The notes under the pieces were generated by a model, which saw nothing but the letters and a program-made list of their open reading frames with translations, was not told where the DNA came from and ran no database searches. A DNA stretch of 64,000 bases from a virus. Position 1 is the first letter of the stretch; each line of letters begins with the position of its first letter. This document shows, piece by piece, positions 17,348 through 56,414 of the stretch. The position numbers and the translations under genes were made by a program. Location: IMG/VR virus record IMGVR_UViG_3300045988_175328, positions 163,220 to 227,219 of that record; one strand, given 5' to 3'.

Positions 17348-17375
17348 GAATTTGTTCAGAAAAGGAGAAATTATC

Positions 17376-20300
17376 ATGAACAAACAAAACATTCAAAACA
17401 ACAAAAATTTAAAAGCTGTCGTATTGGCAGCAGTAGATGCAGCAGTAGCTGCTGATGTGCGCGTGGTTAATACCACTGCGGCGGTAACAACCGCAGAAGC
17501 AGTAGTTACTGAAACTGCAGAAACACTTGCGCGCGCAGCGGTACAGTTTCAAACATTTATCAACAATTTTGTAGTAGAAGGAGGCGAGTATCGTAGCTTC
17601 ATGGGCATTCTATCTGATGTAGGATTTACACATCCAGATCTTGTTAAATGGGTGCGTAAACAAAAATGGACAGAAGCAATGTCTATTTGGAGAGAGGGTC
17701 AAGGATACACACGTAATTCTTTCCTTTGTGATGAAGACTGGAATACATTCCTCGAATTACGGGAAGCCCTCCTTCAAGCGCGCAATGCGTACAAAAACGC
17801 AAAACGTAAATTAGCTAGAAAAGAAGTCGCATTAAAAGCAGCAAAAAAAGAGGCAGCAAAAGCCTTATTAGCAGAGAAATCTGCAAACAAACAATGGAAA
17901 AAGGCGAGAAAGGATGCGAAAGAAGCAAGAGCTACTGAAGCAGCAGTAGCAGTCGAAGAGGCTCGATTAGAAAAAGCACGAAAACGTGCTGAAAAAGTGG
18001 GTCCGAAGGAACCGCCAAAACAAAGAGTGGCCGTAGCTGTTGCTGGTCTTGAGTCCATGTTAGAATGGATCGAATCTAGAAAGGTAGCTGTTACTAAAAC
18101 AGTTGTATTAGAAAATACAGCTAAATTAGTAACAGAAGCTAACGCAGCTGTTGAGTACGGTTATATGGATGCTAGAACTGGAGAATTTGTTTCTACAGAA
18201 GGAACAAAAGAGTTCTCTGGTGCTAGATTCAAAACTGGTGCTATCAACATTGCCGATAAAAATACTGCTAAAGCAACAGCAAAAGCCAACGCTACTGCTA
18301 ATGGTAAAGATTTAGATGGAGACGTCATAAATCGCTTCGTTAAACCTAGAAATATCCTTGATGGATTCAAACTTAAATTGCAAATGTTTGGATCTAAAGT
18401 ACGTGTGCGTAACGTACTTAAAGGTAATCGTAAAGGTTTTAAAGCTGTAATGGGACCAAAAGCACAAGTTGCTATTAAGTCCATTATCGTTGACGGTAGC
18501 GACGTAATGGCTAATGGTGAAGGTGTAAAAGCTATGGCAGTAGCAACTACATCCTCCATTAGCTATATTGTACGTACAGCAATTCGTCTTGGCGAAGAAA
18601 AAGGATGGGCTGAAGAGCTTGTTCTTAGAAATTCTTCTATTAAGACTGGCTATATGGATGGCAACATCGGTATCAACTCTCATAGAGAGATGACATCGAT
18701 GGAAGCCGATTTAACATATATGACTGCAGAAGTATCTGCTAATTATGTGTTGAATGGCTTAATCTCCATTCATATCGATAAAGAGGATGAGGAAGGCGTA
18801 TCCTTCACAAAGGGCATTCGTCAAGCAGAATTCATTATCGTTGATGGAATTAAATACATTCCGTTAATGGTTGAGTCTGTTGCGAAGACTCGTCTATACG
18901 ATACAGTATGGACAGCTGAGCATCTGGCTAACCAATGGCGCGAAGTGCTTCGTGTAGCGACAGGAGGAATCTCTGACAGTATTACTCTAATGAAAGAGTT
19001 AACTAAAGCTCTTAAATTGAGAAGCCGTTTGGGAATGGGGTTCTCTCCTAGCTATGAGTTCGAAATCGATCTTGCACGTTGGGGCGTTGTGTATCTTGAC
19101 GCTTCTATCGATGCAATCGACGGACAAGCTTACGGAAGCAGAGCTATGATGGAAGAGCTTCTTGAACTAGCTGGCGTGAACTCATGGCAAGTTCGCACGA
19201 ATACAGGTAAAGGACAACTCGTTCCAATGAAAAGAATGAAACGTCTACTTGCTGTATTGTGCGAACAATACGGTCTTGAACTCGTTTACGTTTCTGACGT
19301 TGACGAAGTTCAAGCAGCTATTGATGCAGCAAGAGCTGAAGGTAAAAGAGTAGCCGTTGTTGTTGGTAACGCCGAACATATTGGCATGATCGGCGATATG
19401 AATTTCTTTAAAGGAATTCCGACTATCAATGATGGTGGCATTGTTCGTCTAAGCGTCTTGAGAAATCTTGCACCAACAGGCAACGGCTCTCACTTCGCTT
19501 ACCAGGCAGCAGTGGGTGCTTTATGCTCTTACGAATGGGATAATAAAGACCGTTTCGTAAAAGCATTGGCTATGCAAGCCGTTGAAAAATTCACAGAAGC
19601 TTTCAATGGCTGTGCTGTTAATAAATCTGTAACTGATTTGTTTGCAGCATTAGTTGGAGTAAAAGGATTGGCTGGCGAAGCTGATATCATCAGCGAATTA
19701 GCCAACGGTGCATTTACTCCAGCTATGTATGGCATTAAAGAGCTTTCCTATGCGTTAAGAAACGAGCAACAAGTTGTTCGTGGTAGTGCATGGAAAGTTT
19801 CTTGCCCAGGCATGAAGGACGAGCTATTTAACGAAGCTATTCTTGAAGGAGCTGGCCTACTTGTTGTAGAAGGAATTGTTTCTAATAACAATCCTTTACT
19901 AAAACAAGGCGATTGGGTGATGGCATTGAGATACCCACATTCCAATGGGTTCTCTTTCGTTAAAATCAGACTTGTAACAGTATCTGAAGCTATCGAAAGA
20001 GTGAACAACTCTTCCGCGTTTGCGGCTCAAAAAGCTGTCATGATCGATGAGCTATTATCCCTTGGTGATAATAACATCATGGTAGACAGCAGCCGTGAGG
20101 TATTGGAAGCATTAGCTGGTATGGATTTTGATGGAGACGTGATCTCTGTCTTAAATCCAGAAGAAGCAGAGTTGCTTTTGCCAATGGATGAGCTACGTAC
20201 AGTCATTGCTCCGATCGTAACGAAAGCTCAAGAAAAAGAGCTTGTTGTTACAGGAAACTTTGAAGATACAATGCAACATCTTCAAAGCGAGATGGCAGCT

Positions 20301-22178
20301 AATGAAACTAAGTACGTTGGCGAAATCTCCAATGGAGTAATGAAAGCAACTGAGTTCTTGGGTCTTCCTAAAGATGAACAAAGAAAAATTGTGGCAGAAA
20401 TTGTCCGCAATGGAAATCTAAGCCACAATGGCTTATTGCCTACGTTCAACTGGGAGGAACAAGTAACTTGGGTTGAAGGAAAAGAAGGATTCGTACTTAG
20501 CGATGAGTCTACAACTCCTCAAGCTTTAGTTGCTATGAAAAATGCGTTCTTCGATAAAGTTGATGAACGAAACTACTCTGTAGAAAGTTTCATCAACTTC
20601 GCAGAATACGTTGTCATCATGTCTGGTCCAACGCAAGGATTCGTAATTGATGCGGCGAAAAAATTCTGTCCAATCGTAGACTTAGCAGAAGATATCTTCT
20701 CCAACTTAAGTCTTGGATGGAAAAGATTCGCTCCAACAATGGTGCTTACATGCAATGAGTATGGAGAGTTCTCCAAAGGTATGTCTTATAACTTTGGCGA
20801 AGAGAACTCTAGCATTACTCTTACAGTAGGCGCATGTATTCAGGTAGAAGCTTTCAAAGCGTTTGCGGTGGAAGCTTCTAAAGCTATCTTAAATGCATTT
20901 GCTGGAGAGGATGCATCTAAAGCTAACTGGAAAGCATTTGAAGACGCATTGAAAAAAGAGTCTTTAATGTCTTTGGTTGGTGGTAAGATGAACTCTGCTA
21001 GAAAGAACTGCAGAAACATTGCTGCTGGAGCTGCAGCTGCGATTAAAGTTATCGACAACCAAATCGCAGAAGCTTGCGGCGAAGAAAACATTCCTAGTAA
21101 AACAATGAAGGAATGGAGCGACGCTATCGGCTGCATGTTTGCTGCATCTGGTACAATCAATCCTCTTGGATTACGTGCTTATGCATCCAGCAAAACATTA
21201 CGTCCAGCAATCTTGAAAGCAATGCTTGACGCTGCTGAAGTAAAATCCATTCCTGTAGAAATTGGATTTACTTCTATGGCAAGAGTTGCTTTTGCGAAAG
21301 CGAATGTTGGAGAAAAAGTATTCTTCGAAAACTCTAAAGCTGCTGATGCTAACGGAGTAATTCTTCTACACTCTGGTTTAACAGGTTACTACAAAGTATC
21401 TGTTAAAACAGAAGAAGTAGAAGAAAACGGAGAAACAATCTCTGTAGAGACATACTTCGTAGAAGTGCCTGTGTCCGAAGTATTAGGCATCGAACCGATG
21501 AAAACAAATCGTTTCGTTGCTCACTTAGGATACGAAGGTGCCGATGCTGAAGTCGCTAGAAAGTTTAATGCTGAATTAACTAAGTTCGACTTCTGCGCGG
21601 AAGGTACGTTCGCTTTCTATGGCACGATGAAAGAACTAAACAATCTTATGATTGAAAAGTTTGGCGAAGGTGTCTTAAGAGACGTATTGGTATCAACAAT
21701 AACTGGGCTAAAAAACGGTGAAGACGTTTATAGCCAACAGTTTGTTGATTTCATCGCTCTTGCTAATGGTCACGCTACTGATCCGAAGTATGCAGCTGAT
21801 GACAAACATGACCGCGTATTCTTTGTTCGCAAAGATGAGAATGGTCGGGTTGTGGTTATGAGATCATTGCCTAACCAAGCAATGGCTTATGGCCATGAAG
21901 CGTTTAAGCTAAGAGGCATGTTCGCTGGAGAACTAAGATTAGTTAGTTACATCTTAGAAGGAAAAGCTAAGTCTGACAAAAAGGGCTATGTTAATAGCTA
22001 CTTATTGTTAGAGCACAAAACTTTAGCTCCTAAGCAAGAAATCAGTGCGTATATCAATGGTTTAATTACTAAATATGCGGCTGATTTCAAAGCAGCTGTC
22101 TTAAATAAAAAGTTCGAATTAGGTTGCCTTGGTAGCCTAGTTCAAACTGTATTATCTGATGAAGAAATCATTGGATAA
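17376..22178 (+). CDS. putative single-chain two-barrel (DPBB) RNA polymerase, YonO / crAss-gp66-like
   Basis: 1600 aa from ATG 17376 (AAAGGAG RBS; track ORF starts at TTG 17352); RTNTGKG (19194-19214), RYPH (19929-19940), DFDGD (20124-20138) in beta-then-beta-prime order. Confidence 0.6.
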   Translation: MNKQNIQNNKNLKAVVLAAVDAAVAADVRVVNTTAAVTTAEAVVTETAETLARAAVQFQTFINNFVVEGGEYRSFMGILSDVGFTHPDLVKWVRKQKWTEAMSIWREGQGYTRNSFLCDEDWNTFLELREALLQARNAYKNAKRKLARKEVALKAAKKEAAKALLAEKSANKQWKKARKDAKEARATEAAVAVEEARLEKARKRAEKVGPKEPPKQRVAVAVAGLESMLEWIESRKVAVTKTVVLENTAKLVTEANAAVEYGYMDARTGEFVSTEGTKEFSGARFKTGAINIADKNTAKATAKANATANGKDLDGDVINRFVKPRNILDGFKLKLQMFGSKVRVRNVLKGNRKGFKAVMGPKAQVAIKSIIVDGSDVMANGEGVKAMAVATTSSISYIVRTAIRLGEEKGWAEELVLRNSSIKTGYMDGNIGINSHREMTSMEADLTYMTAEVSANYVLNGLISIHIDKEDEEGVSFTKGIRQAEFIIVDGIKYIPLMVESVAKTRLYDTVWTAEHLANQWREVLRVATGGISDSITLMKELTKALKLRSRLGMGFSPSYEFEIDLARWGVVYLDASIDAIDGQAYGSRAMMEELLELAGVNSWQVRTNTGKGQLVPMKRMKRLLAVLCEQYGLELVYVSDVDEVQAAIDAARAEGKRVAVVVGNAEHIGMIGDMNFFKGIPTINDGGIVRLSVLRNLAPTGNGSHFAYQAAVGALCSYEWDNKDRFVKALAMQAVEKFTEAFNGCAVNKSVTDLFAALVGVKGLAGEADIISELANGAFTPAMYGIKELSYALRNEQQVVRGSAWKVSCPGMKDELFNEAILEGAGLLVVEGIVSNNNPLLKQGDWVMALRYPHSNGFSFVKIRLVTVSEAIERVNNSSAFAAQKAVMIDELLSLGDNNIMVDSSREVLEALAGMDFDGDVISVLNPEEAELLLPMDELRTVIAPIVTKAQEKELVVTGNFEDTMQHLQSEMAANETKYVGEISNGVMKATEFLGLPKDEQRKIVAEIVRNGNLSHNGLLPTFNWEEQVTWVEGKEGFVLSDESTTPQALVAMKNAFFDKVDERNYSVESFINFAEYVVIMSGPTQGFVIDAAKKFCPIVDLAEDIFSNLSLGWKRFAPTMVLTCNEYGEFSKGMSYNFGEENSSITLTVGACIQVEAFKAFAVEASKAILNAFAGEDASKANWKAFEDALKKESLMSLVGGKMNSARKNCRNIAAGAAAAIKVIDNQIAEACGEENIPSKTMKEWSDAIGCMFAASGTINPLGLRAYASSKTLRPAILKAMLDAAEVKSIPVEIGFTSMARVAFAKANVGEKVFFENSKAADANGVILLHSGLTGYYKVSVKTEEVEENGETISVETYFVEVPVSEVLGIEPMKTNRFVAHLGYEGADAEVARKFNAELTKFDFCAEGTFAFYGTMKELNNLMIEKFGEGVLRDVLVSTITGLKNGEDVYSQQFVDFIALANGHATDPKYAADDKHDRVFFVRKDENGRVVVMRSLPNQAMAYGHEAFKLRGMFAGELRLVSYILEGKAKSDKKGYVNSYLLLEHKTLAPKQEISAYINGLITKYAADFKAAVLNKKFELGCLGSLVQTVLSDEEIIG

Positions 22179-22567: not shown

Positions 22568-22723
22568 CTTGCGAGGAAAAATCCTCGTTGTTGAGAGCAC
22601 TTGCTCTTCGAAGGCCCTGGCGGTGTCGGAGAGAGGAGTAGGTGCTGTGGTCCTGAATAAGACATTAAACTGTTTCAGAGGAGAAAATCCTCTGTTGTGA
22701 GAGAGCTCATTTAACTCTCTGTT

Positions 22724-22745
22724 TTAATTAAGCCAGTGTAGAAAT
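22724..22745 (+). promoter_or_regulatory. H3 hairpin with conserved GTAGAAATATTT loop in 5' UTR
   Basis: ccagt/gctgg stem; same loop at 25012, 32852, 35320 with different stems. Confidence 0.6.
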
Positions 22746-22785
22746 ATTTGCTGGTGTTTTCGGGCGCATGCCCAAGGAGGTTATC

Positions 22786-23250
22786 ATGTTAACTTTAGAA
22801 TTAAATCGAAAAATGGCCTATGGTTTTTTCCCAGAATTAATTCGCGATGAAGAGAAAATTGCGAATTTGAATGACTTATTTCAAGAAGTTATTATGAAAA
22901 ATAATCCTAACGGAGTTAAGCTCCAATTGGATTTTAAGCACAATGTAATTGTGCATAAAACCAATGTAGGCGAAGTAACTCTAGTAGAAGAGTACTTCCC
23001 TAATGGTACTGAAAAACTTTGGGTAAATCGTTTCCGTAACAGGAAACAACTATTACCTAAAGTTCCTGCAGAATTAATTCCTGTCGCAAAAGAATGCGAC
23101 GAAAGAAATTTATACAAATTTAATTATTTAAGAGAAGGAAACATTACGTTTTATCTCGCAAATAATAGAAAGGTTCTCGTAAGAGAAACTAAAATGGAGG
23201 ATGGAAGTCTTTCAATCGATTTATTCTACCTAGCTGATTTGTTGGCCTAA
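22786..23250 (+). CDS. hypothetical early-region protein
   Basis: 154 aa from ATG 22786, AAGGAGG RBS (track ORF starts at 22768). Confidence 0.7.
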   Translation: MLTLELNRKMAYGFFPELIRDEEKIANLNDLFQEVIMKNNPNGVKLQLDFKHNVIVHKTNVGEVTLVEEYFPNGTEKLWVNRFRNRKQLLPKVPAELIPVAKECDERNLYKFNYLREGNITFYLANNRKVLVRETKMEDGSLSIDLFYLADLLA

Positions 23251-23296
23251 GTAGAATAATCTCCTAAGCATGAGAATAAACTGCTTATTTGTAACG

Positions 23297-23321
23297 GCTC
23301 CTGAATATGAGCATTAAACTG
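23297..23321 (+). promoter_or_regulatory. H1 element, representative copy
   Basis: gctc-ctgaatat-gagc then attaaactg. Confidence 0.6.
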
Positions 23322-23421
23322 TTCTAGAAGAAAATCCTCTATTATGAGTTTTGTCCGTAATGACGATAAACTAATTATTATAATTTAATTTGGCGGCAAA
23401 TCGCCAGAAAGGAGGCATATT

Positions 23422-23577
23422 ATGTCTCAATTAGAATTAACAAACCACTTAGCGTGGGTAGAAGAAATGGTTGCATTCGCGGAGACTGAAGAGTCCAACT
23501 ACCGTGACTTCGAAGGATATCTTGCGGAGTCATTTATCGGAGGCCTGGACCTCTGGCTAGGAGACGATGAATTTTAG
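23422..23577 (+). CDS. small acidic hypothetical protein (51 aa, below ORF-track cutoff)
   Basis: AAAGGAGG RBS 7 nt before ATG; MSQLELTNHLAWVEEMVAFAETEE...; same hairpin-RBS leader as neighbouring genes. Confidence 0.6.
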   Translation: MSQLELTNHLAWVEEMVAFAETEESNYRDFEGYLAESFIGGLDLWLGDDEF

Positions 23578-23715
23578 ACTCTAGTTTCCTGACCAAGACC
23601 TAGGTATGTCTTTAAACTGCCTAAATCCTCCCCATTGCGGGGACTGAATTGTCTGAGATGACGTTAAACTATTTAATTTAATTCATGGCGGCAAATCGCC
23701 AGAAAGGAGATAAGT

Positions 23716-24006
23716 ATGCATACTTATACTCTTGAAAACACTGAGGCACTAGTTGCCTTAGTGCGTGACCTTTGTTTTAGCAATGGTCATTGTCCCAAAG
23801 AAATCTTCTCTTGGGATGAAAAACATTACATTGTAGCCGGCAACCTAGCTAGTTACGATGGACCATGGGACGGTCCTGAAGATGTCGCTCATATCTACGT
23901 TGATGGTGTAGGCGTGGGAGAAATAGATATCTTCGGCGCCGACCAAATTGCATTCGCCGTTGCTAACTGGAACGGCGAAGAATTGAACAGAAAGGTGGTG
24001 GCTTAA
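23716..24006 (+). CDS. hypothetical early-region protein
   Basis: 96-aa ORF; AAAGGAG RBS preceded by ggcggcaaatcgcc hairpin. Confidence 0.7.
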   Translation: MHTYTLENTEALVALVRDLCFSNGHCPKEIFSWDEKHYIVAGNLASYDGPWDGPEDVAHIYVDGVGVGEIDIFGADQIAFAVANWNGEELNRKVVA

Positions 24007-24036
24007 CTGCTTTTCTGTAATCTCGTCGACCACTCG

Positions 24037-24420
24037 GTGGATGTTTACGATTTAGTAGGAAATCTAATCGTGAGCATCCCTAAGAGTGGTCGTGTAGCTC
24101 GTGTTCGGACAAGTAGCGAAAGAGTGGGCGCTATTTGTTCTAAGGATTTTAGCTATCGAAAATACAATGAAGACGGTAGCTATGAAGATACACCACTTAA
24201 AGGGAACCCACAATCTGGGCACCTGAATATATTCAAATCTGAGTATTCAGATGTCGAAGGGTTCCCTGAAACTATAGAACAGGGTGTGTATTATATTGTC
24301 AGTTCTATGGTGGCGTCTCGTATACAGAGTCATCAGGTTATTGCGCCTGGTCAGATTATGCGGGACGCCTCCGGCAAAGCCGTAGGATGCTGCGGTCTTA
24401 GTTATACTGCCGGAAGATAA
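24037..24420 (+). CDS. hypothetical protein
   Basis: 127-aa ORF with GTG start and no clear RBS. Confidence 0.5.
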   Translation: MDVYDLVGNLIVSIPKSGRVARVRTSSERVGAICSKDFSYRKYNEDGSYEDTPLKGNPQSGHLNIFKSEYSDVEGFPETIEQGVYYIVSSMVASRIQSHQVIAPGQIMRDASGKAVGCCGLSYTAGR

Positions 24421-24460
24421 ATTAATTAATTTAAATAGGGCCCGGATGCTCGAGGAGGTA

Positions 24461-24637
24461 ATGATGAAGAATATAATTATCGTATGCATGCTATCACTAA
24501 TCTGCACTATAGCAATAGTGGAATTTTCAGTAGGCTTGTTCCCAGCATTAGCTGGGTATCCAGAAGCATTGGCTACAGCAGGAGCTATTTCTGTTGCAAC
24601 TATTTCCTTCATGTTGTTTGACATGATAGGAGACTGA
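24461..24637 (+). CDS. small hydrophobic membrane peptide
   Basis: 58 aa from ATG 24461 after GAGGAGG; two predicted TM segments. Confidence 0.6.
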   Translation: MMKNIIIVCMLSLICTIAIVEFSVGLFPALAGYPEALATAGAISVATISFMLFDMIGD

Positions 24638-24656
24638 AAAATCCTCGTTTATGAGG
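24637..24656 (+). promoter_or_regulatory. H2 element AAAAATCCTC-N-TGAGG, representative copy
   Basis: aaaaatcctcgtttatgagg; one of at least 19 copies in the window. Confidence 0.6.
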
Positions 24657-24732
24657 AGAAGTCCGTAATGACTGTAAACTATTCTAATATATTTAATTAA
24701 TTAAAGGGCGCAAATGCCCGGAGGAGGTTTCT

Positions 24733-24903
24733 ATGAGAGACGAAATCATTTTATTAATTTCCAGCATTGCAGTAGGAGTGGGAATTTCTACTCTTATTAA
24801 TGAGGTTTTCCCTATATTAGTGGATTATCCATTAGTAATGTCTATCTTCGGAGGAATCATCTCAGGAGCGATATATTATTTTATTCACTTGTTATCATAC
24901 TAG
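24733..24903 (+). CDS. small hydrophobic membrane peptide (56 aa, below ORF-track cutoff)
   Basis: GGAGGAGG RBS; MRDEIILLISSIAVGVGISTLINEVFPILVDYPLVMSIFGGIISGAIYYFIHLLSY; resembles 24461 product. Confidence 0.6.
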   Translation: MRDEIILLISSIAVGVGISTLINEVFPILVDYPLVMSIFGGIISGAIYYFIHLLSY

Positions 24904-25076
24904 TAGAATAAAATCCTCAGACCTCAGCAAGTCTTTAAACTACTCTTTCCTGACAGTTCCTAAGTATGAACATAAAACTGCTTATCTTTTAAAAATCCTC
25001 GCTTGTGAGGTGCTTGCGTAGAAATAGCAAGCTATATTATTTTAATTAGGCCTTAGGCCAGAAATGGAGTTTTATC

Positions 25077-25547
25077 ATGAAAACACAAAAATCTACAGAA
25101 CGCAAATTAGTTAATTTTTCTAGCTACTTTAAACAAAAAGACGACAAAGTCTTTGGTGCTGCTGTATTGCACTGCGGCAAGGAAGTGCAAGTTGCTGCTT
25201 ACAATGGCGGCAAAGCCCTTCATTCTATTGAAGGAGCTGTGTGTGCAGCAGCATGCGCAGCTACAGTAAATATGAAGAAGGGAGACCTCTTCACCATGAT
25301 TGTTGACTTGAAGACATTACGCCAATTATGGTCTGCTATTAAAACTGGCAATGTAACTGATGACTTCGCAGGCAATGAGGCGGAACGCAATGCCGTTATC
25401 AAAATGGCCGAACGCGTTCCAGCCCTTCGGGCTCGCGGCATTATTGTGAACATTCGTGCTCATAAAGATGTCTATGCAAGTGGAGGATACTTAGCAGGGC
25501 AACTCCCAATTTGGAGCCGTATGGCTACCAAAGCTATGAACATCTAA
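25077..25547 (+). CDS. hypothetical protein
   Basis: 156-aa ORF; leader carries H2, H3 and a ggcc-tta-ggcc hairpin. Confidence 0.7.
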   Translation: MKTQKSTERKLVNFSSYFKQKDDKVFGAAVLHCGKEVQVAAYNGGKALHSIEGAVCAAACAATVNMKKGDLFTMIVDLKTLRQLWSAIKTGNVTDDFAGNEAERNAVIKMAERVPALRARGIIVNIRAHKDVYASGGYLAGQLPIWSRMATKAMNI

Positions 25548-25604
25548 ATCCTCTGACCTGAGCATGTCGGTAAACTGCTCAATTATTTAATTTAATTTAA
25601 TTAA

Positions 25605-25620
25605 GGGCGGCAAATCGCCC
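25605..25620 (+). promoter_or_regulatory. H4 GC hairpin abutting the RBS, representative copy
   Basis: gggcggcaaatcgccc followed directly by gaggagg; similar at 22753, 23391, 23686, 24706, 25049, 48760. Confidence 0.6.
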
Positions 25621-25632
25621 GAGGAGGTTTAT

Positions 25633-26118
25633 ATGCAAACTTTGAAAATTAACAATCCTACAAGAAACTTAATTGAGATGACTTTAGAGGTCACAAAATT
25701 AAACGGCACTATTGAACAAGACGGCAATGCTGTTATCATTAATTTGCCAGAAGAACAGGTGTCTGCCTTTGTAGAATGGTACGGTGGTACTGGACTTAAG
25801 GAGACTGCCCTTGCCATCGCAAAGAAAGCAGGAGCATTAACTGCCAAAGCAGGAGACCTTACGAAAGTAGGGACTGTTGCTTTAGGAAAATTATCTTTCA
25901 AGACAGCCTTCGGTATGACTCGCAGAGCCATTGAGGCGACCGCGGGGATCACAGCTGCGGCCGTTAATGGCGCCAAAGAAGCTTATAGCGAAATGGTAAG
26001 TTCTGACGAGTTCAGAGCTGTTAAAGAATCTTTTAGTTCTGGACGCGGCAACGGCATTGAATTTGTCGAAATGACACCGGTTGTTCAAGCTGAAGTAGCA
26101 GAAGTTGTAGAAGGATAG
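25633..26118 (+). CDS. hypothetical protein, family E (paralogue of 47362..47877)
   Basis: 161 aa; ...LSFKTAFGMTRRAIEATAG...SDEFRAVKESF aligns with ...LAFKTTFGVGRRCVETVAG...SEEFNDLRNQF. Confidence 0.75.
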   Translation: MQTLKINNPTRNLIEMTLEVTKLNGTIEQDGNAVIINLPEEQVSAFVEWYGGTGLKETALAIAKKAGALTAKAGDLTKVGTVALGKLSFKTAFGMTRRAIEATAGITAAAVNGAKEAYSEMVSSDEFRAVKESFSSGRGNGIEFVEMTPVVQAEVAEVVEG

Positions 26119-26127
26119 AAATCCTCA

Positions 26128-26150
26128 GACCTGAGCAAGTCGTTAAACTG
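26128..26150 (+). promoter_or_regulatory. H1 element fused to an H2 AAATCCTC box
   Basis: aaatcctca-gac-ctgagcaa-gtc-gttaaactg. Confidence 0.6.
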
Positions 26151-28916: not shown

Positions 28917-28920
28917 TAAT

Positions 28921-28968
28921 AAGGGGTGCCCGAGCGAAGCGAGGGGTTAACGCCCCTTTTATTTTTTT
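28921..28968 (+). terminator. intrinsic terminator whose loop holds the first GA/GAA hairpin unit
   Basis: aaggggtg...cgcccctt stem then tttatttttttc. Confidence 0.7.
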
Positions 28969-29475
28969 CTAATAACCGTCTCCAACGGATCTAGCGAGCG
29001 AAGCGAGCGATTAACGAACCTACTATGTTTAAAGGGCGAGCGAATGCGAGCCCTTGTTAATGGACTTGTTTATATGAGGCGAGCGAAGCGAGCCGTTAAT
29101 GTACCTATCTTAAGTTTAGTAAGGGCGAGCGAAGCGAGCCCATTAAAGAACTAACTTAAAGATAGTAGCGATGCGAACGAAGTGAGCCGAGCTGTTGGTC
29201 CTTACTATAGTATAGTCGGCGAGTGAAACGAGCCGTTATAGTATAGTACTTATATATAGTATTAATAGAAAGAACCCGAAGGGTTATTATGTATAATAGT
29301 ATATATAAGCGAAAAAGGGAGCGTGAGCGACAGAAGGAGAGGCGGCGAACGAAGTGAGCCGTTGTTTGTTTCTTTGTTCCTGTATATATAAGAAAAGACA
29401 AGACAATTTGTTTTCGTCTTTTTGTTATATATAGTATAAAGAAAAAGAATAAATGGGCGCGAGCGGCAGCGAGCG
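28929..29475 (+). repeat. array of about 10 GGC-GA-GC-GAA-GC-GA-GCC hairpin units, each followed by GTTAA-like sequence
   Basis: units at 28929, 28993, 29034, 29078, 29123, 29173, 29217, 29318, 29341, 29455; outer stems covary (ccc/ggg vs ggc/gcc), inner gc/gc vs gt/ac. Confidence 0.8.
28974..28989 (+). repeat. 16-nt direct repeat aaccgtctccaacgga, left copy
   Basis: exact second copy at 43141-43156; both follow a terminator plus T-rich run. Confidence 0.85.
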
Positions 29476-29608
29476 ATTGTTTGTTCTTGTATACTATATA
29501 ATAGTATAAGAAAGACAAGAATTTTTTTGTTTGTCTTATAGTACTATATAGTATTAATAGTAAAAGAAATAAAAAAAAGAATGCCGGAAGTGGTCTTGAA
29601 GAGATTTA

Positions 29609-29636
29609 TGGTAATATAAGTCATGGTACATGACTT
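29609..29636 (+). promoter_or_regulatory. extended -10 (TGgTAATAT) followed by GTA-triloop hairpin, unit 1
   Basis: tggtaatat then aagtcatg-gta-catgactt then aac. Confidence 0.5.
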
Positions 29637-29786
29637 AACCCGTGGGAATTGTGGACGACCCTTCCTTCCGGTGCATGTACCTTTTTTATTTTTTGTCGCT
29701 GGCTCTTATTTAATTTTTGTTCTTGTTATATACTATATATATAATAATAAAAGAAATTAAAATAAGAATCGGCGCCGAGAAAATTT

Positions 29787-29813
29787 TGAGTAATATAAGT
29801 CTCGAAGAGACTT
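29787..29813 (+). promoter_or_regulatory. TGagTAATAT followed by GAA-triloop hairpin, unit 2
   Basis: aagtctc-gaa-gagactt then aac. Confidence 0.5.
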
Positions 29814-30036
29814 AACCGTGAGGTAGAATGGCCGGATGAATTGCTATTGTCTTATACTATATATATAGTAAGACACATAACATATCGCCGCCCGAACCCT
29901 TTAAAAAATTTTATTATTAAATTAATTTATATTTTTTAATTTTTTCGCCCCTGGTATTTTATTATAGTACTATATAGTAATAATATATAAACATAACAAC
30001 ATAATAATAATCGCCCGGGCTTCCTGAAAAAATTTT

Positions 30037-30062
30037 TGGTAATATAAGTCTCGAAGAGACTT
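30037..30062 (+). promoter_or_regulatory. extended -10 (TGgTAATAT) followed by GAA-triloop hairpin, unit 3
   Basis: identical hairpin aagtctc-gaa-gagactt. Confidence 0.5.
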
Positions 30063-30238
30063 AACTCCTTACCCCCGGTATCTTGATCCCGTAGGGGTCT
30101 TATTGTACTGTATCTACACTATAGTACTTACCGAACAAAATGTTTCTTATCTTACTTTTTATTCGGTTGTACATAGGGTTAGACACTTCGGTACATTAAA
30201 AAATTTTTTTTCTAAAAAAATGACTAACGTAACTTTTA

Positions 30239-30262
30239 TGAGTAATATAACTAACGTTAGTT
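30239..30262 (+). promoter_or_regulatory. TGagTAATAT followed by palindrome aactaacgttagtt, unit 4
   Basis: same TAATAT box, different but still palindromic downstream sequence. Confidence 0.45.
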
Positions 30263-30329
30263 TTCTTCGAAGAGAAGTAAGCTGAAACTGCAAGGCTGCC
30301 TGCTCTACGACTGCCCGTACGGTTTTTTA

Positions 30330-30930
30330 TAGAAGAATGGTAGTGTATTAATACTGTACTGTTAGTACTACTAGTACTGTACTACTCGACCCACACCTTT
30401 TGTGGCTGTGCCCTAAAAGGACGGGCCACTCTAATAGTTTTTTTACAGAAATTGTAGTTAATTTGTACTATTTCTAATGCAATATTAATAGTAAAACTGC
30501 ATTGGTTTTTCTGTACTTATAGATATACTAATTGCATTAGTTTTACAGATACAATTGTATTGGTTTTACAGTACCAACAGTTAACTAACACTACAGTACT
30601 TACAGTACTAATAAGACCGTACCAATGGTTTTAATGGTACTATAGTAAGATTGTACCATTGCCAATACAGCACTGCAAATAAAACCGTACTGTTTTGCAG
30701 TACTAAATGGTAATTAAATTGGTATGTTAATACAGTACTAACAAAACTGAACCAATGCTATTAATAGTACTACAGTTAAACTGTATCAACAAGACAGTAC
30801 CTATAGTACTATCAGAACTATAGTTAGATTGTATCAATAAGACAGAACCAATAGAACTATTGAAGCTATAGAAAGACTGTACTAATTAAACTGTACTAAT
30901 AGTATTAACAGTACATATAGTAAAGTAGTA
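30330..30930. repeat. GTAC-rich iteron field (possible origin or protein-binding array)
   Basis: I count 21 GTAC tetramers, mostly as CAGTAC(T/C) or CTGTACT, interleaved with about 10 copies of ACTGTAYCAATGGTTTTA-like repeats. Confidence 0.7.
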
Positions 30931-30994
30931 TTATATTAATAATTGTAATAGTAGTATTAATAATAAGAAGAATAAAGAAAAGAAAAATTTTTTT

Positions 30995-31022
30995 CTTAAG
31001 GGGCAAGCCCCTTAACAACCCC
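30995..31022 (+). repeat. H5 28-nt element, copy 2
   Basis: cttaaggggcaagccccttaacaacccc preceded by A5T7. Confidence 0.9.
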
Positions 31023-31025
31023 AAG

Positions 31026-31053
31026 TTGGTGAAGTTTAAAACAGCAGTAATAT
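31026..31053 (+). promoter_or_regulatory. candidate sigma-A-type promoter
   Basis: TTGGTG, 16-nt spacer, TAATAT. Confidence 0.4.
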
Positions 31054-31059
31054 AAAGAC

Positions 31060-31268
31060 TGTGTTTTTTGTATCACCTCCAATACCGAAACACACATCAT
31101 AATGTTTCCTCCTTTCTAAAATGATGAGAACTGAGAGCTCGGTTGAAACTTAGACCGAGCCTTGGTCTTATCGCGTTTACGCGTAATATACGAGTCCTGT
31201 AAGGACTCGATAACTGGAAACGATGTTAATTTATAGGAATATAGCCGCCCGTTTGGGCGGCTTTTTTT
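31060..31268 (+). ncRNA. candidate small RNA or structured leader (three hairpins + terminator)
   Basis: gctcggt/accgagc, cgcgt/acgcg, cgagtcc/ggactcg stems, then agccgccc-gttt-gggcggct T7 (31243-31268); no ORF. Confidence 0.4.
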
Positions 31269-31289
31269 GTTTTATTTGAGGTGTTATTT

Positions 31290-32018: not shown

Positions 32019-32025
32019 CAACCCC
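31998..32025 (+). repeat. H5 28-nt element, copy 3
   Basis: identical 28-mer; contains stop codon of 31290 gene. Confidence 0.9.
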
Positions 32026-32134
32026 AAGTTGACGTAGGTTTAAAGTGCTACGTTAGCAAATAAAATCCTCATTAGTGAGGCACATTTAATGCTATCTATA
32101 GAACATACGTTCTTATTAATAAGGAGGTGATCTT

Positions 32135-32446
32135 ATAAGATATCAAAGCTGTGAAGAATTTGAAAGCTACTTCGACGGTCGATTTTATCTATTAAAAGAT
32201 CTTATTCGTGGAAATAAATTATTATGGGAAGTTGAAATAGATAAGTATACTGTTATAAATATATTAACTGAAGGAGACAGGTATGGAATAATATATCCCG
32301 AGAAAGAACGGAACTATTTTGAAGTAGGTATAATGTATGAGTCAGAAGGAAGCAATGATATTACACATCAAACTATATTAAATGTTCCTTATTATGTGGC
32401 GCTTGAAATAATAAAGAGCTTAAAAGAAGATACTTTAAAGGAGTAG
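32135..32446 (+). CDS. family B paralogue lacking a canonical start codon (possible ATA/CTT start or pseudogene)
   Basis: open frame from 32126; AGGAGGT RBS 5-7 nt before ATA 32135; product ...FESYFDGRFYLLKDLIRGNKLLWEVEID...VPYYVALEIIKSL closely matches 37213 product; absent from ORF track. Confidence 0.5.
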   Translation: MRYQSCEEFESYFDGRFYLLKDLIRGNKLLWEVEIDKYTVINILTEGDRYGIIYPEKERNYFEVGIMYESEGSNDITHQTILNVPYYVALEIIKSLKEDTLKE

Positions 32447-32450
32447 TTTA

Positions 32451-39162: not shown

Positions 39163-39163
39163 C

Positions 39164-44908: not shown

Positions 44909-46159
44909 ATGTATGTAAATATGAAGCAACAGGTAAAACATCTAACAAAAGAAAAATACAATATCCTAAGAGAATTATGTAGGACTGCTAAGAATTTAAA
45001 AAATGAAGCAATTTATAATATTCGACAACATTATTTTCAAGAAAAACAATACTTGAGATATGAGTCGAATTATCATGAACTAAAGTATTCTGAAAATTAT
45101 AAGCTTTTAAATTCTAATATGGCACAACAAACTCTCAAGGAAGTTGATACAATGTTTAAATCATTCTTTGCTTTGATTAAAATGGCAAAGCAAGGAAAGT
45201 ACAGTTTTAAGCATATACGATTACCTAAGTATCTGCCTAAAAATGGATATTCAAATTTAATCATTGCACAATTTAAAATTAAAGATGGTATTTTAACTAT
45301 TCCAGTTTCTAATGCTTTTAAGGAAAAGCATGATATGAAAATTCAGATCAAAATTCCCAAAGCATTAGAAGGTAAAAAGATTAAACAGATTCAAATTATA
45401 CCTAAATTTAATGCTAGGTTCTTCGAGATTCAATATATATATGAAGTTCAAGAAGAAGATTTAAAATTAGATACCAACAATGCACTGGCTATTGATTTGG
45501 GAGTTAATAATTTGTGTACTTGCGTTACAAACGCTGGTAGATCTTTTATTATCGACGGAAGGAAGTTAAAATCTGTTAATCAATTCTTTAACAAGAATTA
45601 TGCTAAACTACAATCTATTAAAGACAAACAGCGTATCAAAAGACAGACGAAACAACAATATTTAATTTCTCTTAAGAGAAAGAATAGGGTTAACGATTAT
45701 ATCAATAAAACATGTCGATATATCATAAACTATTGCTTATCTAATAATATCGGAACTTTAGTTATTGGTTATAATCAGTCATTTCAATGTAAAACTAATT
45801 TAGGTAGGAGAAACAATCAAATTTTTACTCAATTGCCATTTGGTAAGATTCGAGAAAAATTAGAATATTCGTGCAAACGATATGGTATTAATTATATCTT
45901 ACAAGAAGAATCTTACACTTCTAAAGCTAGTTTTTTTGATAATGATGAGTTACCTATTTATAATGCTGACAATCCACAGGAATATGAGTTCAGTGGAAAG
46001 CGTGTTAAAAGAGGATTATACCAGACTAAAGATGGTTATCTTTTTAATGCAGATTGTAACGGCGCATTAAATATTCTTCGTAAAAGTAGCGTTGTAGACC
46101 TTAGTGTCTTATACAGTAGGGGCGATCTGGACACGCCTAAAAGAATAAGGATCTTTTAA
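44909..46159 (+). CDS. tnpB: TnpB-like RNA-guided endonuclease (IS200/IS605 OrfB family)
   Basis: 416 aa from ATG 44909 (GAGGTG RBS); RuvC triad contexts AIDLGVNN, LQEESYTSK, FNADCNGALNILR; no CxxC zinc-finger pairs. Confidence 0.9.
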   Translation: MYVNMKQQVKHLTKEKYNILRELCRTAKNLKNEAIYNIRQHYFQEKQYLRYESNYHELKYSENYKLLNSNMAQQTLKEVDTMFKSFFALIKMAKQGKYSFKHIRLPKYLPKNGYSNLIIAQFKIKDGILTIPVSNAFKEKHDMKIQIKIPKALEGKKIKQIQIIPKFNARFFEIQYIYEVQEEDLKLDTNNALAIDLGVNNLCTCVTNAGRSFIIDGRKLKSVNQFFNKNYAKLQSIKDKQRIKRQTKQQYLISLKRKNRVNDYINKTCRYIINYCLSNNIGTLVIGYNQSFQCKTNLGRRNNQIFTQLPFGKIREKLEYSCKRYGINYILQEESYTSKASFFDNDELPIYNADNPQEYEFSGKRVKRGLYQTKDGYLFNADCNGALNILRKSSVVDLSVLYSRGDLDTPKRIRIF

Positions 46160-48513: not shown

Positions 48514-48555
48514 AAAATCCTCACATTTGACATTTTCATAATATTAGCATATAAT
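48514..48555 (+). promoter_or_regulatory. consensus sigma-A promoter preceded by an H2 AAAATCCTC box
   Basis: TTGACA (48527-32), exactly 17-nt spacer, TATAAT (48550-55). Confidence 0.8.
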
Positions 48556-54396: not shown

Positions 54397-54423
54397 TTTT
54401 TGTTATTTTTCATTTATTTACTC

Positions 54424-54452
54424 TTGTATTTTTTGTAATATAGGAGTATAAT
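54424..54452 (+). promoter_or_regulatory. candidate sigma-A promoter at the start of the ORF-free region
   Basis: TTGTAT (54424-29), 17-nt spacer, TATAAT (54447-52). Confidence 0.55.
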
Positions 54453-54459
54453 ATTTGTT

Positions 54460-55733
54460 GAATAAATATTGTTTGTAGTTTTATATTATTTTTTTAATTT
54501 TTAGATGTCCCATACGTCTTAAAATCATATTTTATATAATAAAAGACAGTAGTTTAACTATTGTTTCTGTGATTTACAATGAAGAAATACCCCTATGTTT
54601 CTTCTCAATGCAAAACTACAATCCCATCTAAGTTAGGTTAGGATAACGTGACCTAACAGTTCGCTCCAAAATCCTTACACCAGGATGGCTTAGTCTCTAC
54701 AAGAGCTTGCGACTCTTGAATAGTGGACAGGCATGGGAGGGTGTCCTTGTACTTTAATTTTAATTTGTTTTTAGTATTTTAATACTGATTATGTAACAAA
54801 AACGATTTTTATAACAAAAAAACGAATCATTAACACTTTAAAGTACATGTAGGCTATATGTAAGACCTAAAGGGAATACCTGGCTACCTTCTGTAACCGT
54901 ATCTGAAAGCCGGAGAAAGCATTGCTACGGATTCGTCATGTAGTAGCGTTTGCAGTCCTTACCTGGACTTTAAATAGCGGGTGTTGCGAGCCCATGTAAG
55001 CGAAATCAGCAAAGGTACCCGTACTTAGTCTTCCTGAGTACGGATCCTACAAACGGGATGAAGGAACTACTGAATCCCTTATAGTATTACACTGTAATGG
55101 TAATTAGTAAGGTAAACATAAGAAATAGTGTCTCGCAAGCATGAGTTACCGAACGTTGCATTAATATAGCTATATTAGCTGTGAATTGGATCTTTCGCCA
55201 CAGTTTACACTGTAAATGTAGATCTGGAGCTAATATATAGGCGGCCTGTGTTAATGAGTAGTAGCTATGATTAAATGAGTTCGGGGGTATCAACTGGACG
55301 AGCTAATGAAGACGTAAGTCTTTGTTAGTATGTTGAGGTTGGCTTCCGTATGGACGATATCGGAGCCGGATTCCGTTCGATAGGCAAGGTGCGAGAGATC
55401 GTGAACCCTACCTAGCATGTAGAAGTAGAACCTAGACGCATGGTAAGAACGGTTATTATTTTTCTAGCTGTTGTATCTGAATATGTCGTAAGACATTGGA
55501 AGGATATATGCAAAAGCAGTACAGTTGTTAAATAAAACTGGAAGTAGAGATCTAATAAAGTATAGGAAGACGCCTTAGGGCAAAACTTAATTTTTTAATC
55601 CAGTAGGATTAGTCTGCCCAAAAGGAGTTAACTTACCCCCGTACGAAGAATATAAGCTGTTATCTTAAGATAGCTGGCGTAAACTGATTAGATCGGTTTG
55701 TCAGAACTGTCTTAGGATAACAGCTATTTTTTT
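54460..55733 (+). ncRNA. candidate large structured non-coding RNA (one or two transcripts; 5' end uncertain)
   Basis: no + strand ORF of 60 aa or more between 54397 and 55979; many hairpins incl. GNRA loops at 55309-22 (GTAA), 55392-401 (GAGA), 55483-96 (GTAA); terminator at 3' end. Confidence 0.55.
55655..55733 (+). terminator. long-stem intrinsic terminator closing the ORF-free region
   Basis: agctgttatcttaaga (55655-70) pairs with tcttaggataacagct (55710-25), then T7. Confidence 0.7.
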
Positions 55734-55979
55734 ATACTGAAATTGATACTGTAGAACTGATACTTATTATCTGACTTAACTCTAATGGTAACTGCGTCCT
55801 ATTTATATTTAATAAGGCTTTAGATAGGGGGCGTGAAAATAGAGCTGAATCTTTATCAAAAGCAGAGTAATCTCTGCGCGTTGATAATCAGTTAGTATCG
55901 GTAATACAGAATTAAGATAGAATTAGTGCTATGTTTGTAGCTTCGGTAATTTGCAGATACAGAAAGGACAGGACGAGAA

Positions 55980-56414
55980 TTGAGTAAGGCTAAAGAACAA
56001 GAATTAGAACGAGTAATTACAGAGTTATTAGAATGTTATGATTTCGAGGCTAATACCGATCTATTGATTCGAGCCATGAATACAGAATTAGTAGGATTAT
56101 ATGATGATAATGGTGACTCTTTTACTATCGGCAATCTTACAAGAGGTGCTATGCGAGTACTGTTATCTAACTGGGACAAATGGAGAATTACAGAAGAACA
56201 GCCTGAAATTGTAGGGATGTTTGTCATATCAGTTATTAAGAACTATATCGGAATGAGAGCATATGATCCTAGAGCGGCCGAACGAATCAACTTATACATG
56301 CAAATGTTTCTAGCAGAAGATGAAGCAGATGTTTATCAATTACACTTAGATTTCATACTAGGAGTAGACGATTGCGACTGTGAGGAACTAGACGAAGTAG
56401 AGGTGTTACATTAA
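55980..56414 (+). CDS. hypothetical protein, paralogue of next gene
   Basis: 144-aa ORF, TTG start, weak RBS; FTIGNLTRGAMRVL...GMFVISV aligns with LTLGNLIEGALKLA...GMYFLGV. Confidence 0.55.
   Translation: MSKAKEQELERVITELLECYDFEANTDLLIRAMNTELVGLYDDNGDSFTIGNLTRGAMRVLLSNWDKWRITEEQPEIVGMFVISVIKNYIGMRAYDPRAAERINLYMQMFLAEDEADVYQLHLDFILGVDDCDCEELDEVEVLH

Follow-up and report, generated by a model that had tools for sequence, protein, structure and literature searches.

The window, by which we mean the whole 64,000-nt stretch of DNA analysed here, belongs to an AT-rich phage genome of ~215-227 kb that is represented by metagenome assemblies only; a 227,241-nt ENA contig (ERZ27276323:k141_26322) includes a stretch identical to the window, and relatives of the phage occupy contigs of 214-225 kb. 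All genes seen in the window and in ~10 kb beyond it are on the + strand. The left part of the window encodes tail/baseplate proteins (Gp10_C, an amidase, tail-fibre PHROGs), and a long run of small genes starts at 31290. That run is separated from the last small gene on the late side by a gene-free gap, which is flanked by two repeat arrays and forms a conserved non-coding hub. The gap contains six copies of a short box, most of them joined to a hairpin; these units (U1 to U6) and the features associated with them are as follows.

28917..31289, no strand assigned: gene-free gap of 2373 nt, without a credible gene, with all units inside
29611..29639, + strand: U1; box GTAATATA at 29611-18, 9-bp hairpin TAAGTCATG-GTA-CATGACTTA at 29617-37, then AC
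29640..29695, + strand: U1 body and T-run; C/U-rich CCCTTCCTTCC, then GCATGTACC, then TTTTTTATTTTTT; the T-run is conserved
29790..29816, + strand: U2; box at 29790-97, 8-bp hairpin TAAGTCTC-GAA-GAGACTTA at 29796-814, then AC
30039..30065, + strand: U3; box at 30039-46, hairpin at 30045-63 identical to that of U2, then AC
30085..30099, + strand: hairpin GATCCC-GNA-GGGGTC in the region downstream of U3
30220..30249, + strand: start of U4; -35-like ATGACT, 17-nt spacer and TAATAT within the box GTAATATA (box at 30242-49)
30257..30288, + strand: conserved 12-bp hairpin of U4, TTAGTTTTCTTC-NNNNN-GAAG(A/T)AAGCTGA, with two G.U pairs, then AAC
30289..30328, + strand: variable body of U4, closing stem AACCG/CGGTT, and T-run at 30323-28
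31047..31054, + strand: U6; GTAATATAA, that is the box GTAATATA(A), without a hairpin after it; TTGGTG 16 nt upstream
31183..31214, + strand: U5; box GTAATATA, 8-bp hairpin CGAGTCCT-GTA-AGGACTCG, then ATAAC; invariant in all relatives
31243..31269, + strand: strong intrinsic terminator of U5, AGCCGCCC-GTTT-GGGCGGCT, followed by T7; z -4.9

An equivalent gap of ~2.2-2.35 kb occupies the same position in all relatives recovered (L004, L007, L009, L015, L017 and L019). The gap alignment comprises eight genomes, namely the window and L004, L007, L009, L015, L017, L018 and L019, at 81-89% identity; L017 and L018 count as one type, leaving seven sequence types in the comparison. The 77-aa protein that flanks the gap has close homologues only, and the genomes recovered all have nearly the same gap. 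Gap DNA had no match in 50,697 phage records, and the U2 26-mer had none in IMG/VR. No Rfam 15 family matched the window at its gathering score, the gap yielding only chance-level matches (E up to 5), and a tRNA/tmRNA search found none. The phage clade is uncharacterised, and its hosts are probably low-GC Gram-positive gut bacteria.

The + strand of the window has nine copies of the box, the 8-mer GTAATATA, and the - strand has none. Six of these copies are in the gap, against 0.30 expected there on the + strand from 3000 first-order Markov simulations of the 2373-nt sequence (maximum in simulations, 4). For TAATAT with a perfect stem of 7 bp or more and a 3-nt loop beginning 0-3 nt after it, the gap gives a count of four where 0.002 were expected (maximum, 1), and in four copies of the box perfect stems of 7-9 bp with 3-nt loops stand directly after it. 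Box-hairpin modules exist at this locus; they are non-random, confined to one strand and conserved as a block. All four boxes of the preliminary description are present at the positions given there, with start-to-start distances (179, 249 and 203 nt) that agree with its spacing of ~180-250 nt, and its pair of identical hairpins corresponds to U2 and U3; its count of four fell short by two, U5 at 31183 and U6 at 31047.

Conservation is sharply partitioned within the units. The 27-32 nt cores, consisting of box, hairpin and (T)AAC, are invariant in the eight genomes with two exceptions, both in L017/L018: a G to A change in the U1 loop (giving ATA) and one base of the U2 AAC, which reads AGC. 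The 5' flanks of the boxes and the sequence after AAC vary across the eight genomes, with immediate divergence after AAC in U2 and moderate divergence in U1, U3 and U4, and the T-runs after U1, U4 and U5 are conserved across the relatives. Such a contrast between core and flanks is what a recognition site would show if the transcript after it were under weaker constraint. All six paralogous boxes in the eight genomes carry the identical non-consensus 8-mer, including its flanking G and A, and a T-rich tract precedes the box. U3 belongs to repeat family D14 (93% over 40 nt). The U6 box lies inside the loop of a weak hairpin with T6 after it, and in all relatives there is hardly any difference in the 250 nt around it.

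The hairpins are conserved as structures. The stems of U1, U2/U3 and U5 (AAGTCATG, AAGTCTC and CGAGTCCT) have only AGTC/GACT in common; their inner pairs are ATG/CAT in U1, TC/GA in U2/U3 and CT/AG in U5, all complementary, as had been noticed earlier of stems that vary yet stay self-complementary. The distance from GTAATATA to AAC is 16, 18 or 21 nt, and longer in U4. Since the stems differ but remain complementary and the distance from box to AAC is variable, it is the folded strand that is selected and not a duplex site of fixed spacing; the module stems are selected for pairing. A duplex operator of a dimeric repressor was considered and rejected, the AGTC/GACT half-sites being 7 or 9 nt apart with inner bases still complementary: a dimeric DNA-binding protein would not accept changes in spacing, nor would it require a self-complementary spacer. 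G-N-A loops, which the preliminary description attributed to the units, are found in U1-U3 and U5 of the window, but the loop G is not absolute, as the U1 loop ATA of L017/L018 shows. The hairpin at 30085-30099 varies at the middle base of its loop (T, C or G among relatives), with the G and A constant.

That every box is followed by a triloop hairpin and AAC holds for U1-U3 but not for U4. Of the seven other genomes, five (L004, L007, L009, L015 and L019) have a broken form (AACCTACGTTAGTT) of the palindrome AACTAACGTTAGTT at 30249-62 of the window, which is intact only in the window and L017/L018. What is conserved at U4 is the 12-bp hairpin with a pentaloop (30257-85), which begins 7 nt past the box and is kept in all genomes compared; its stem is fixed, and its loop reads GAAGA, GCAGA, CGAGA, GGAGA or GATGA among relatives. 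This hairpin folds at -14.0 kcal/mol as + strand RNA against -7.2 for the complement, and this asymmetry, together with the G.U pairs, indicates that the U4 hairpin at least is a structure of the + strand. In the stem that closes the U4 body the outer stem is kept and one inner pair is changed on both sides.

Upstream of the units lies an array of seven GCGAGC-GAA-GCGAGC copies (28930-29361), each folding into a hairpin that has two G-C pairs on either side of a tandem G.A/A.G, and a GAA loop. In each of the variants GCGAAC...GTGAGC, GCGAGT...ACGAGC and CCGAGC...GCGAGG the change is compensatory. Each genome carries 4-7 copies of this motif on the + strand; on the - strand there is one in the window and none in six relatives. 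RTTAAYG follows most of the hairpins of the array, and the TTAAC found after the U hairpins also stands after the R element, a third family of hairpins.

The + strand of the region is rich in terminator-like sites (11 found, 1.5 expected). U5 ends in a strong hairpin-plus-T-run, U1 and U4 in weaker pairing before a T-run, and U2 has no clear end; after U3 there is a T-run at 30205, with no stem directly before it. Of the T-runs reported earlier after the first and fourth units, both are conserved, but that of U4 is at 30323-28 and not at 30343. The U5 terminator lies 33 nt beyond the unit and ends 20 nt before the ATG at 31290. Its stem carries a compensatory G-C to A-T double change in L019, and its loop is changed in L007. 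L007 and L017 have an inserted gene with its own TATGATATAAT promoter after the U5 terminator, which makes U5 a self-contained unit.

In the body of U1, GCATGTACC is able to pair with GGTACATG of the U1 hairpin. No compensatory changes were found among orthologues in the U1 and U3 bodies, a result of the low divergence of these orthologues. The earlier statement that no ORF follows the units stands in the sense that none is conserved: the 45-aa ORF at 29623 lacks a ribosome-binding site (RBS) and suffers 1-nt indels in relatives, and the small ORFs after the units were generally rejected as genes, being without an RBS and with frames broken by indels in relatives. A search of the window for antisense targets (at least 10 nt) of the putative small RNAs returned AT-rich chance matches and generic anti-SD/SD pairs only.

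Our preferred explanation, to which we would give a little less than an even chance, is that the units are promoter modules for short + strand RNAs with a hairpin at the 5' end. The invariant GTAATATA and the T-rich run before it would form the promoter core, transcription would start at the end of the box or a few bases past it, and the hairpin, or at least its 3' half, would occupy the extreme 5' end of the RNA; after it would come AAC and then a body that varies in sequence and is in many cases rich in C and U. Such RNAs would be ~70-90 nt long for U1, U4 and U5 and perhaps ~165 nt for U3, if it extends to the T-run at 30205. U5 would be the only conserved start site ahead of the first gene after the gap, so that the gene at 31290 would be expressed only via read-through of the U5 terminator. 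In Firmicutes, RNase J1 and 5'-end-dependent decay are blocked by 5'-terminal stem-loops, and it is on this knowledge that we base the idea that the 5' hairpin may protect the RNA.

Co-orientation of the units as apparent start modules, the U5 terminator and the T-runs of U1 and U4 thus favour the family of short non-coding RNAs that had been proposed, but U2 has no clear end. Several observations count against parts of the reading. A general phage promoter is expected before protein-coding genes, and no box precedes such a gene in the ~84 kb examined. The short-RNA reading is also weakened by the lack of a clear terminator in U2 and of a stem directly before the U3 T-run, and C-G-closed G-N-A triloops, which are known above all as DNA hairpins of unusual stability (PMC13037366), would suit a role at the DNA level equally well. 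On the other side, intergenic RNAs and AT-rich boxes have precedents in phages. Of the early RNAs of the crAss-like phage phi14:2, those from two long intergenic regions rank among the most abundant (bioRxiv 10.1101/2020.03.07.982082). The early promoters that jumbo-phage virion polymerases use are defined by AT-rich boxes of ~10 nt with their centre near -10 (PMC7598289), and P23-45 has a conserved AT-rich motif ahead of the start sites of its virion polymerase (bioRxiv 10.1101/2022.12.01.518664).

Which factor would read the box is a separate matter. The preliminary description took it for an extended -10-like element, placed a sigma-A start inside the hairpin, and added that the hairpin may act on the DNA or the RNAs may start earlier than expected. 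Taken as a host sigma-A promoter, with the start inside the palindrome and the palindrome gating initiation as a DNA cruciform or protein site, the unit is a version that we consider unlikely. All six units have TAATAT, which keeps the -10 positions T-12, A-11 and T-7, and the phage has near-consensus host-type promoters elsewhere (TTGACA-17-TACAAT at 39163, TTGACA-17-TATAAT at 48520, and also TGnTATAAT), from which it clearly appears to use the host polymerase. A TG does stand one base before TAATAT in U1 and U3. In U2 and U4 of the window, the box is preceded by TGAG, which places the TG at the wrong spacing, and the unit sites of relatives read TGG, TGAG or TCAG, with CA in place of TG in relatives. 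Variation in the bases just upstream of the box indicates that the TG is not under selection, and the extended -10 assignment is not supported. The absence of a recognisable -35, also noted before, applies to U1-U3; U4 has a -35-like ATGACT at 17 nt (its GACT is kept in all relatives), and U5 and U6, more weakly, have TTGGTC and TTGGTG at 16 nt. All of these hexamers score below the scan threshold; their positions at 16-17 nt count for a promoter reading of U4, U5 and U6 in general and are what the sigma-A version can claim for these units.

The identity of a non-consensus 8-mer with its flanking G and A in six paralogues and eight genomes, set against near-consensus promoters elsewhere, tells against the host sigma-A version, as do U1-U3 with no -35 and AGTC/GACT half-sites at 7 or 9 nt with complementary inner bases, an arrangement that a dimeric operator protein could not tolerate. 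Were TAATAT a sigma-A -10, transcription of U1-U3 and U5 would begin within the hairpin, in its 5' arm or its loop; the RNA would then lack the complete hairpin, and the perfect palindromes would be left unexplained. A start at the last A of the box would give the simplest common description, in which the U1-U5 RNAs each have a 5'-proximal hairpin and then AAC; in that case the box would have to be read by something other than standard sigma-A. That six paralogues keep strictly the same 8-mer points to a dedicated recognition factor, perhaps a phage sigma-like protein or a phage polymerase, in preference to plain host sigma-A.

The units could also be sites on RNA, with GUAAUAUA, hairpin and AAC recognised within longer + strand transcripts from upstream promoters, either for nut-like antitermination ahead of terminators or as a cleavage or 5'-end site for a single-strand-specific RNase beside a protecting hairpin. 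We regard these versions, taken together, as a lesser but real possibility. The hairpins fold well as + strand RNA, those of U1, U4 and U5 are 30-45 nt ahead of a terminator, and the first gene after the gap is reachable only through the U5 terminator. The U4 loop GAAGA is of the same GNRA-like type as the pentaloop of lambda boxB. Sigma-A-like promoters occur 45-55 nt upstream of U2 (e.g., TTGTTC-17-TATAAT at 29720-48), but such matches are common in AT-rich sequence (25 found, 18.6 expected). The loops vary by unit (GTA, GAA, GAAGA), unlike the sites of a single RNA-binding antiterminator, and the box does not resemble boxA. The stems are far too short for RNase III, and a site for that enzyme was rejected on this ground. 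Like lambda nut, the units combine a conserved single-stranded motif with a short hairpin that has a G-purine-rich loop, upstream of terminators; unlike nut, they have a box unrelated to boxA, triloops in four units and loops that differ, and no N-like protein was identified here.

A role of the hairpins at the DNA level, as priming, nicking or terminase signals with the gap as an origin, packaging site or genome end, is in our judgement rather unlikely. The gap is a conserved non-coding hub between two repeat arrays, and with all genes seen on one strand the place to expect the ends of a linear genome is the junction of the late and early blocks, the position of the gap. Read on the opposite strand, the box is TATATTAC, which resembles rolling-circle nick motifs of the TAATATTAC type. 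C-G-closed G-N-A triloops, like GCGAAGC cores, are well-known stable mini-hairpins of DNA at phage origins and priming sites (PMC13037366). Against this, the U4 hairpin depends on two G.T/G.U pairs and its distance from the box is not that of the other units, the units are followed by terminators that show compensatory changes, and no replication initiator, HUH nuclease or terminase gene adjoins the gap. Cumulative GC skew has no turning point at the gap, and no pile-up of contig ends was seen in it. As for a rolling-circle/HUH nick site in particular, the box is outside the hairpin, and no Rep or HUH family was found among the 86 window proteins.

Two further candidates were set aside. A TnpB gene is present at 44909, and it led us to consider IS200/IS605 or REP-like ends; these were rejected, all units having one orientation, one flank type and one locus. 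The other candidate, mimicry of a CRISPR repeat (a solitary repeat unit acting as an RNA anti-CRISPR), was rejected because no repeat match was found in genomes or metagenomes: the pattern GTAATATAAGTCN{7,9}GACTTAAC matched nothing in a set of 185,579 species, each represented by one genome, or in JGI metagenomes, collections from which the host may be absent.

If a phage polymerase reads the box, the window offers one candidate for it, encoded ~6.7-7 kb upstream of the gap.

17352-22178, + strand: gene for a 1608-aa protein, in the virion-gene block

The protein contains RYPHSNG and, 56 residues later, GMDFDGD, and the key residues of R-Y-P-H-x-N-G and G-M-D-F-D-x-D are invariant in homologues that are 34-95% identical. 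In wording and spacing these motifs recall R-x-P-x-x-H ... NADFDGD, the signature of the catalytic double-psi barrel in cellular polymerases and in YonO, QDE-1 and crAss gp66. PHROG 4291, 'RNA-dependent RNA polymerase', matches the protein weakly, exactly over the motifs (E 3.6e-4), and the gp66 catalytic motif has been reported for a crAss-like phage (bioRxiv 10.1101/2020.03.07.982082). Sequence searches of Pfam and PDB gave no match, tblastn gave none in 50,697 phage records, and none was found in IMG/VR. The family makes up just four 50% clusters among 1.84 billion representatives, one of which, P0012 (715 aa), also has KYP...LAGMDFDGD, and an AF2 model built from an 8-sequence alignment reaches a pLDDT of 41. 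As a lead, the 1608-aa protein is, from its motifs, more likely than not a phage RNA polymerase. T7-type motifs B or C were absent from the long ORFs of the window and the flanking loci L004, L010, L015, L017 and L019 (~84 kb, roughly one third of the genome).

If such a polymerase were packaged in the virion, the units might be structural promoters like those of N4: supercoiling would extrude the unit hairpin, and transcription would start on the exposed single strand beside it, at or near AAC. What the N4 virion polymerase recognises is a hairpin with a G-N-A loop in extruded form (PMC4496689), and the geometry here is similar: N4 P1-P3 are small hairpins (stem of 5-7 bp, G-N-A loop of 3 nt) between conserved flanks, with stems that are free in sequence so long as they pair, in few clustered copies (PMC4496689). 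Only five or six units are present here, located where DNA entry is expected to begin, and the 1608-aa protein, with RYPHSNG/GMDFDGD and its PHROG 4291 match, would be the candidate polymerase; gp66 prefers single-stranded templates (bioRxiv 10.1101/2020.03.07.982082). An N4-like mechanism in this strict form is nevertheless very improbable. The purine-rich loops are on the + strand, which is the non-template strand for rightward transcription, the opposite of N4, and U1 and U5 have T in the middle of the loop, where N4 needs a purine. U4 breaks the fixed spacing of box and hairpin, and the polymerase assignment relies on motifs, with a pLDDT of 41 and no PDB or Pfam match. The stems here are 7-9 bp and not 5-7, there is an extra 8-nt AT-rich box, and the ~84 kb examined hold no T7-like polymerase motifs.

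Also improbable, though not as remote, is a variant in which the 1608-aa DFDGD protein is a two-barrel RNA polymerase packaged in the virion, of the kind of YonO, crAss gp66 and P23-45 gp96, and uses the hairpins as structural elements of its promoters. An extruded G-N-A hairpin beside a meltable AT-rich box would then give the polymerase a single-stranded start site. Neither of the better-known relatives supplies a promoter for comparison: the promoter motif of the crAss-like virion polymerase gp66, which prefers single-stranded templates, is unknown (bioRxiv 10.1101/2020.03.07.982082), and that of YonO is undefined (PMC5467207).

Returning to the promoter modules for short RNAs that we favour, a close likeness in layout is to the tandem early promoters of T7-type phages (A1, A2, A3), whose leading end is non-coding, and to phage small RNA genes defined by promoters. 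In both cases, promoter-like sites 125-250 nt apart are co-oriented in a gene-free stretch upstream of the first early genes, with all genes in the same direction. The present units differ in being fused to hairpins, three of them with terminator-like ends, and in having a box that is not a consensus host promoter, without a -35 in U1-U3. The ~10-nt early and pre-early motifs of phiKZ, AR9 and P23-45, read by phage-encoded virion polymerases of the multisubunit or two-barrel type, share with the units a short, strict AT-rich box without a -35, found at a subset of transcription units, in phages with their own virion polymerase, for which there may be a counterpart here (a candidate only). Those motifs precede protein-coding early genes, and fusion to a hairpin has not been reported for them, whereas here the box is found at non-coding units only.

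If the units are promoters, they provide a compact, testable recognition element, made up of an 8-nt box and a start-proximal hairpin, and define a set of early non-coding RNAs in an uncharacterised ~215-227 kb phage clade. Should the DFDGD protein read the box, this would be a promoter architecture for the YonO/crAss-type single-chain polymerases, which is undefined for YonO and gp66, and a second independent case of hairpin-dependent initiation after N4; in its two-barrel version the mechanism would be convergent with N4, in an unrelated polymerase family. If the units are RNA or DNA sites, the region would still be a dense, strand-specific set of at least four hairpin families, and a natural system in which one strand of a phage genome is read as structure.

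Besides its box units (U1 to U6, + strand), the gene-free gap of 2373 nt carries the following arrays and palindromes.

28930-29361, also 29036 and 29459: array of 15-nt hairpins, GCGAGC-GAA-GCGAGC, in the left part of the gap (in the window, seven copies on the + strand and one on the - strand)
29240-30000: several long AT-rich palindromes with TATAGTA-type words and arms of 24-35 nt
30340-30940: ACAGTAC/GTACTG-rich repeat array with a 48-nt periodicity, between U4 and the R element, a third hairpin family

The 15-nt hairpins are built on a GCGAAGC mini-hairpin core and include a tandem G.A pair, and compensatory variants of three kinds occur. Most copies are followed on the 3' side by RTTAAYG(A/T)ACC, and some copies in L007, a related phage locus carrying the gap, have a GGA loop; on the - strand of the relatives the hairpin was not found. 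The TATAGTA-type palindromes (e.g., 29249-29309, which has a CCC-GAA-GGG centre, and 29491-29554) precede U1, U2 and U3 by ~45-70 nt. Copy number in the ACAGTAC/GTACTG array varies among relatives through block deletions of ~130 nt, and these repeats may represent iteron-like binding sites.

Two further signals recur on the + strand, within the gap or elsewhere in the window.

22424, 30996, 31999, 34951 and 38690, + strand: element composed of a T-run, TTAAGGGGC-AA-GCCCCTTAA and CAACCCC
22358 to 61826 (e.g., 24639, 28078, 32063 and 36548), + strand only: AAAATCCTC-N4-6-GAGG hairpins, 17-21 sites

Copies of the first element reside at gene ends, or 25-60 nt ahead of the next start codon. The 24-mer of this element is also present in Clostridia MAGs, in a Caenarcanales MAG, where it forms ~150-nt tandem units 2.7 kb from a 16S gene, and, again in tandem, in a lake metagenome (loci L022-L026). 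The sequence GCCCCUUAACAA is identical at 10 of 12 positions to the E. coli rrn boxA, GCUCUUUAACAA. The GAGG hairpins, some of which contain G.U pairs, are usually directly 3' of a stop codon and may be terminators or some other signal particular to this phage.

In the region 30996-31175, the + strand 3' of U6, the box unit that has no hairpin, carries AUCACCUCC and CCUCCUUUCU, which correspond to the 3' end of 16S rRNA, one half each. Read on the - strand, the same bases provide a perfect RBS and the ATG of a 34-aa ORF running from 31100 down to 30996. Because 250 nt around this region are nearly identical in all relatives, coding and RNA functions are indistinguishable here.

Outside the gap, a second gene-free stretch and TnpB-type genes were identified.

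54397-56075: second gene-free stretch, 1.7 kb, with higher GC than its surroundings
44909-46156 in the window, 14665-15660 in L020 and 16306-18974 in L021 (loci of relatives): TnpB-type genes (OrfB_IS605 and Cas12f1-like TNB domain)

The second stretch opens with a promoter-like TTGTAT-17-TATAAT, the spacer of which includes GTAATATA; an Rfam search of this stretch gave no match. No TnpA accompanies the TnpB-type genes in the window, L020 or L021. In L021 the thymidylate synthase gene is interrupted by one TnpB copy, which leaves fragments of 244 aa and 72 aa; this gene is unbroken in L020 (298 aa). Separately, 32019-32450 resembles a paralogue of the small proteins that come next, with a strong RBS (AAGGAGGTGA) and no ATG, GTG or TTG at the expected place, and either has a non-canonical start or is a decayed copy.

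Upstream of the gap, the virion-gene block includes a candidate phage polymerase.

17352-22178: gene for a 1608-aa protein

Within this protein RYPHSNG (~nt 19929) and GMDFDGD (~nt 20118) are invariant, with an additional stretch, QVRTNTGKGQ, upstream of both. The N- and C-terminal parts are strongly variable among relatives (34-95% identity). The motif stretch is matched by PHROG 4291, ‘RNA-dependent RNA polymerase’ (E 3.6e-4), and a possible identity for the protein is a single-chain RNA polymerase of the two-barrel type. In the small-gene block directly 3' of its gene (22665-26143), (A/T)TAAACTG(C/T)T is a recurrent intergenic motif, often 20-40 nt ahead of an AT-rich stretch and RBS, and is a candidate stage-specific promoter.
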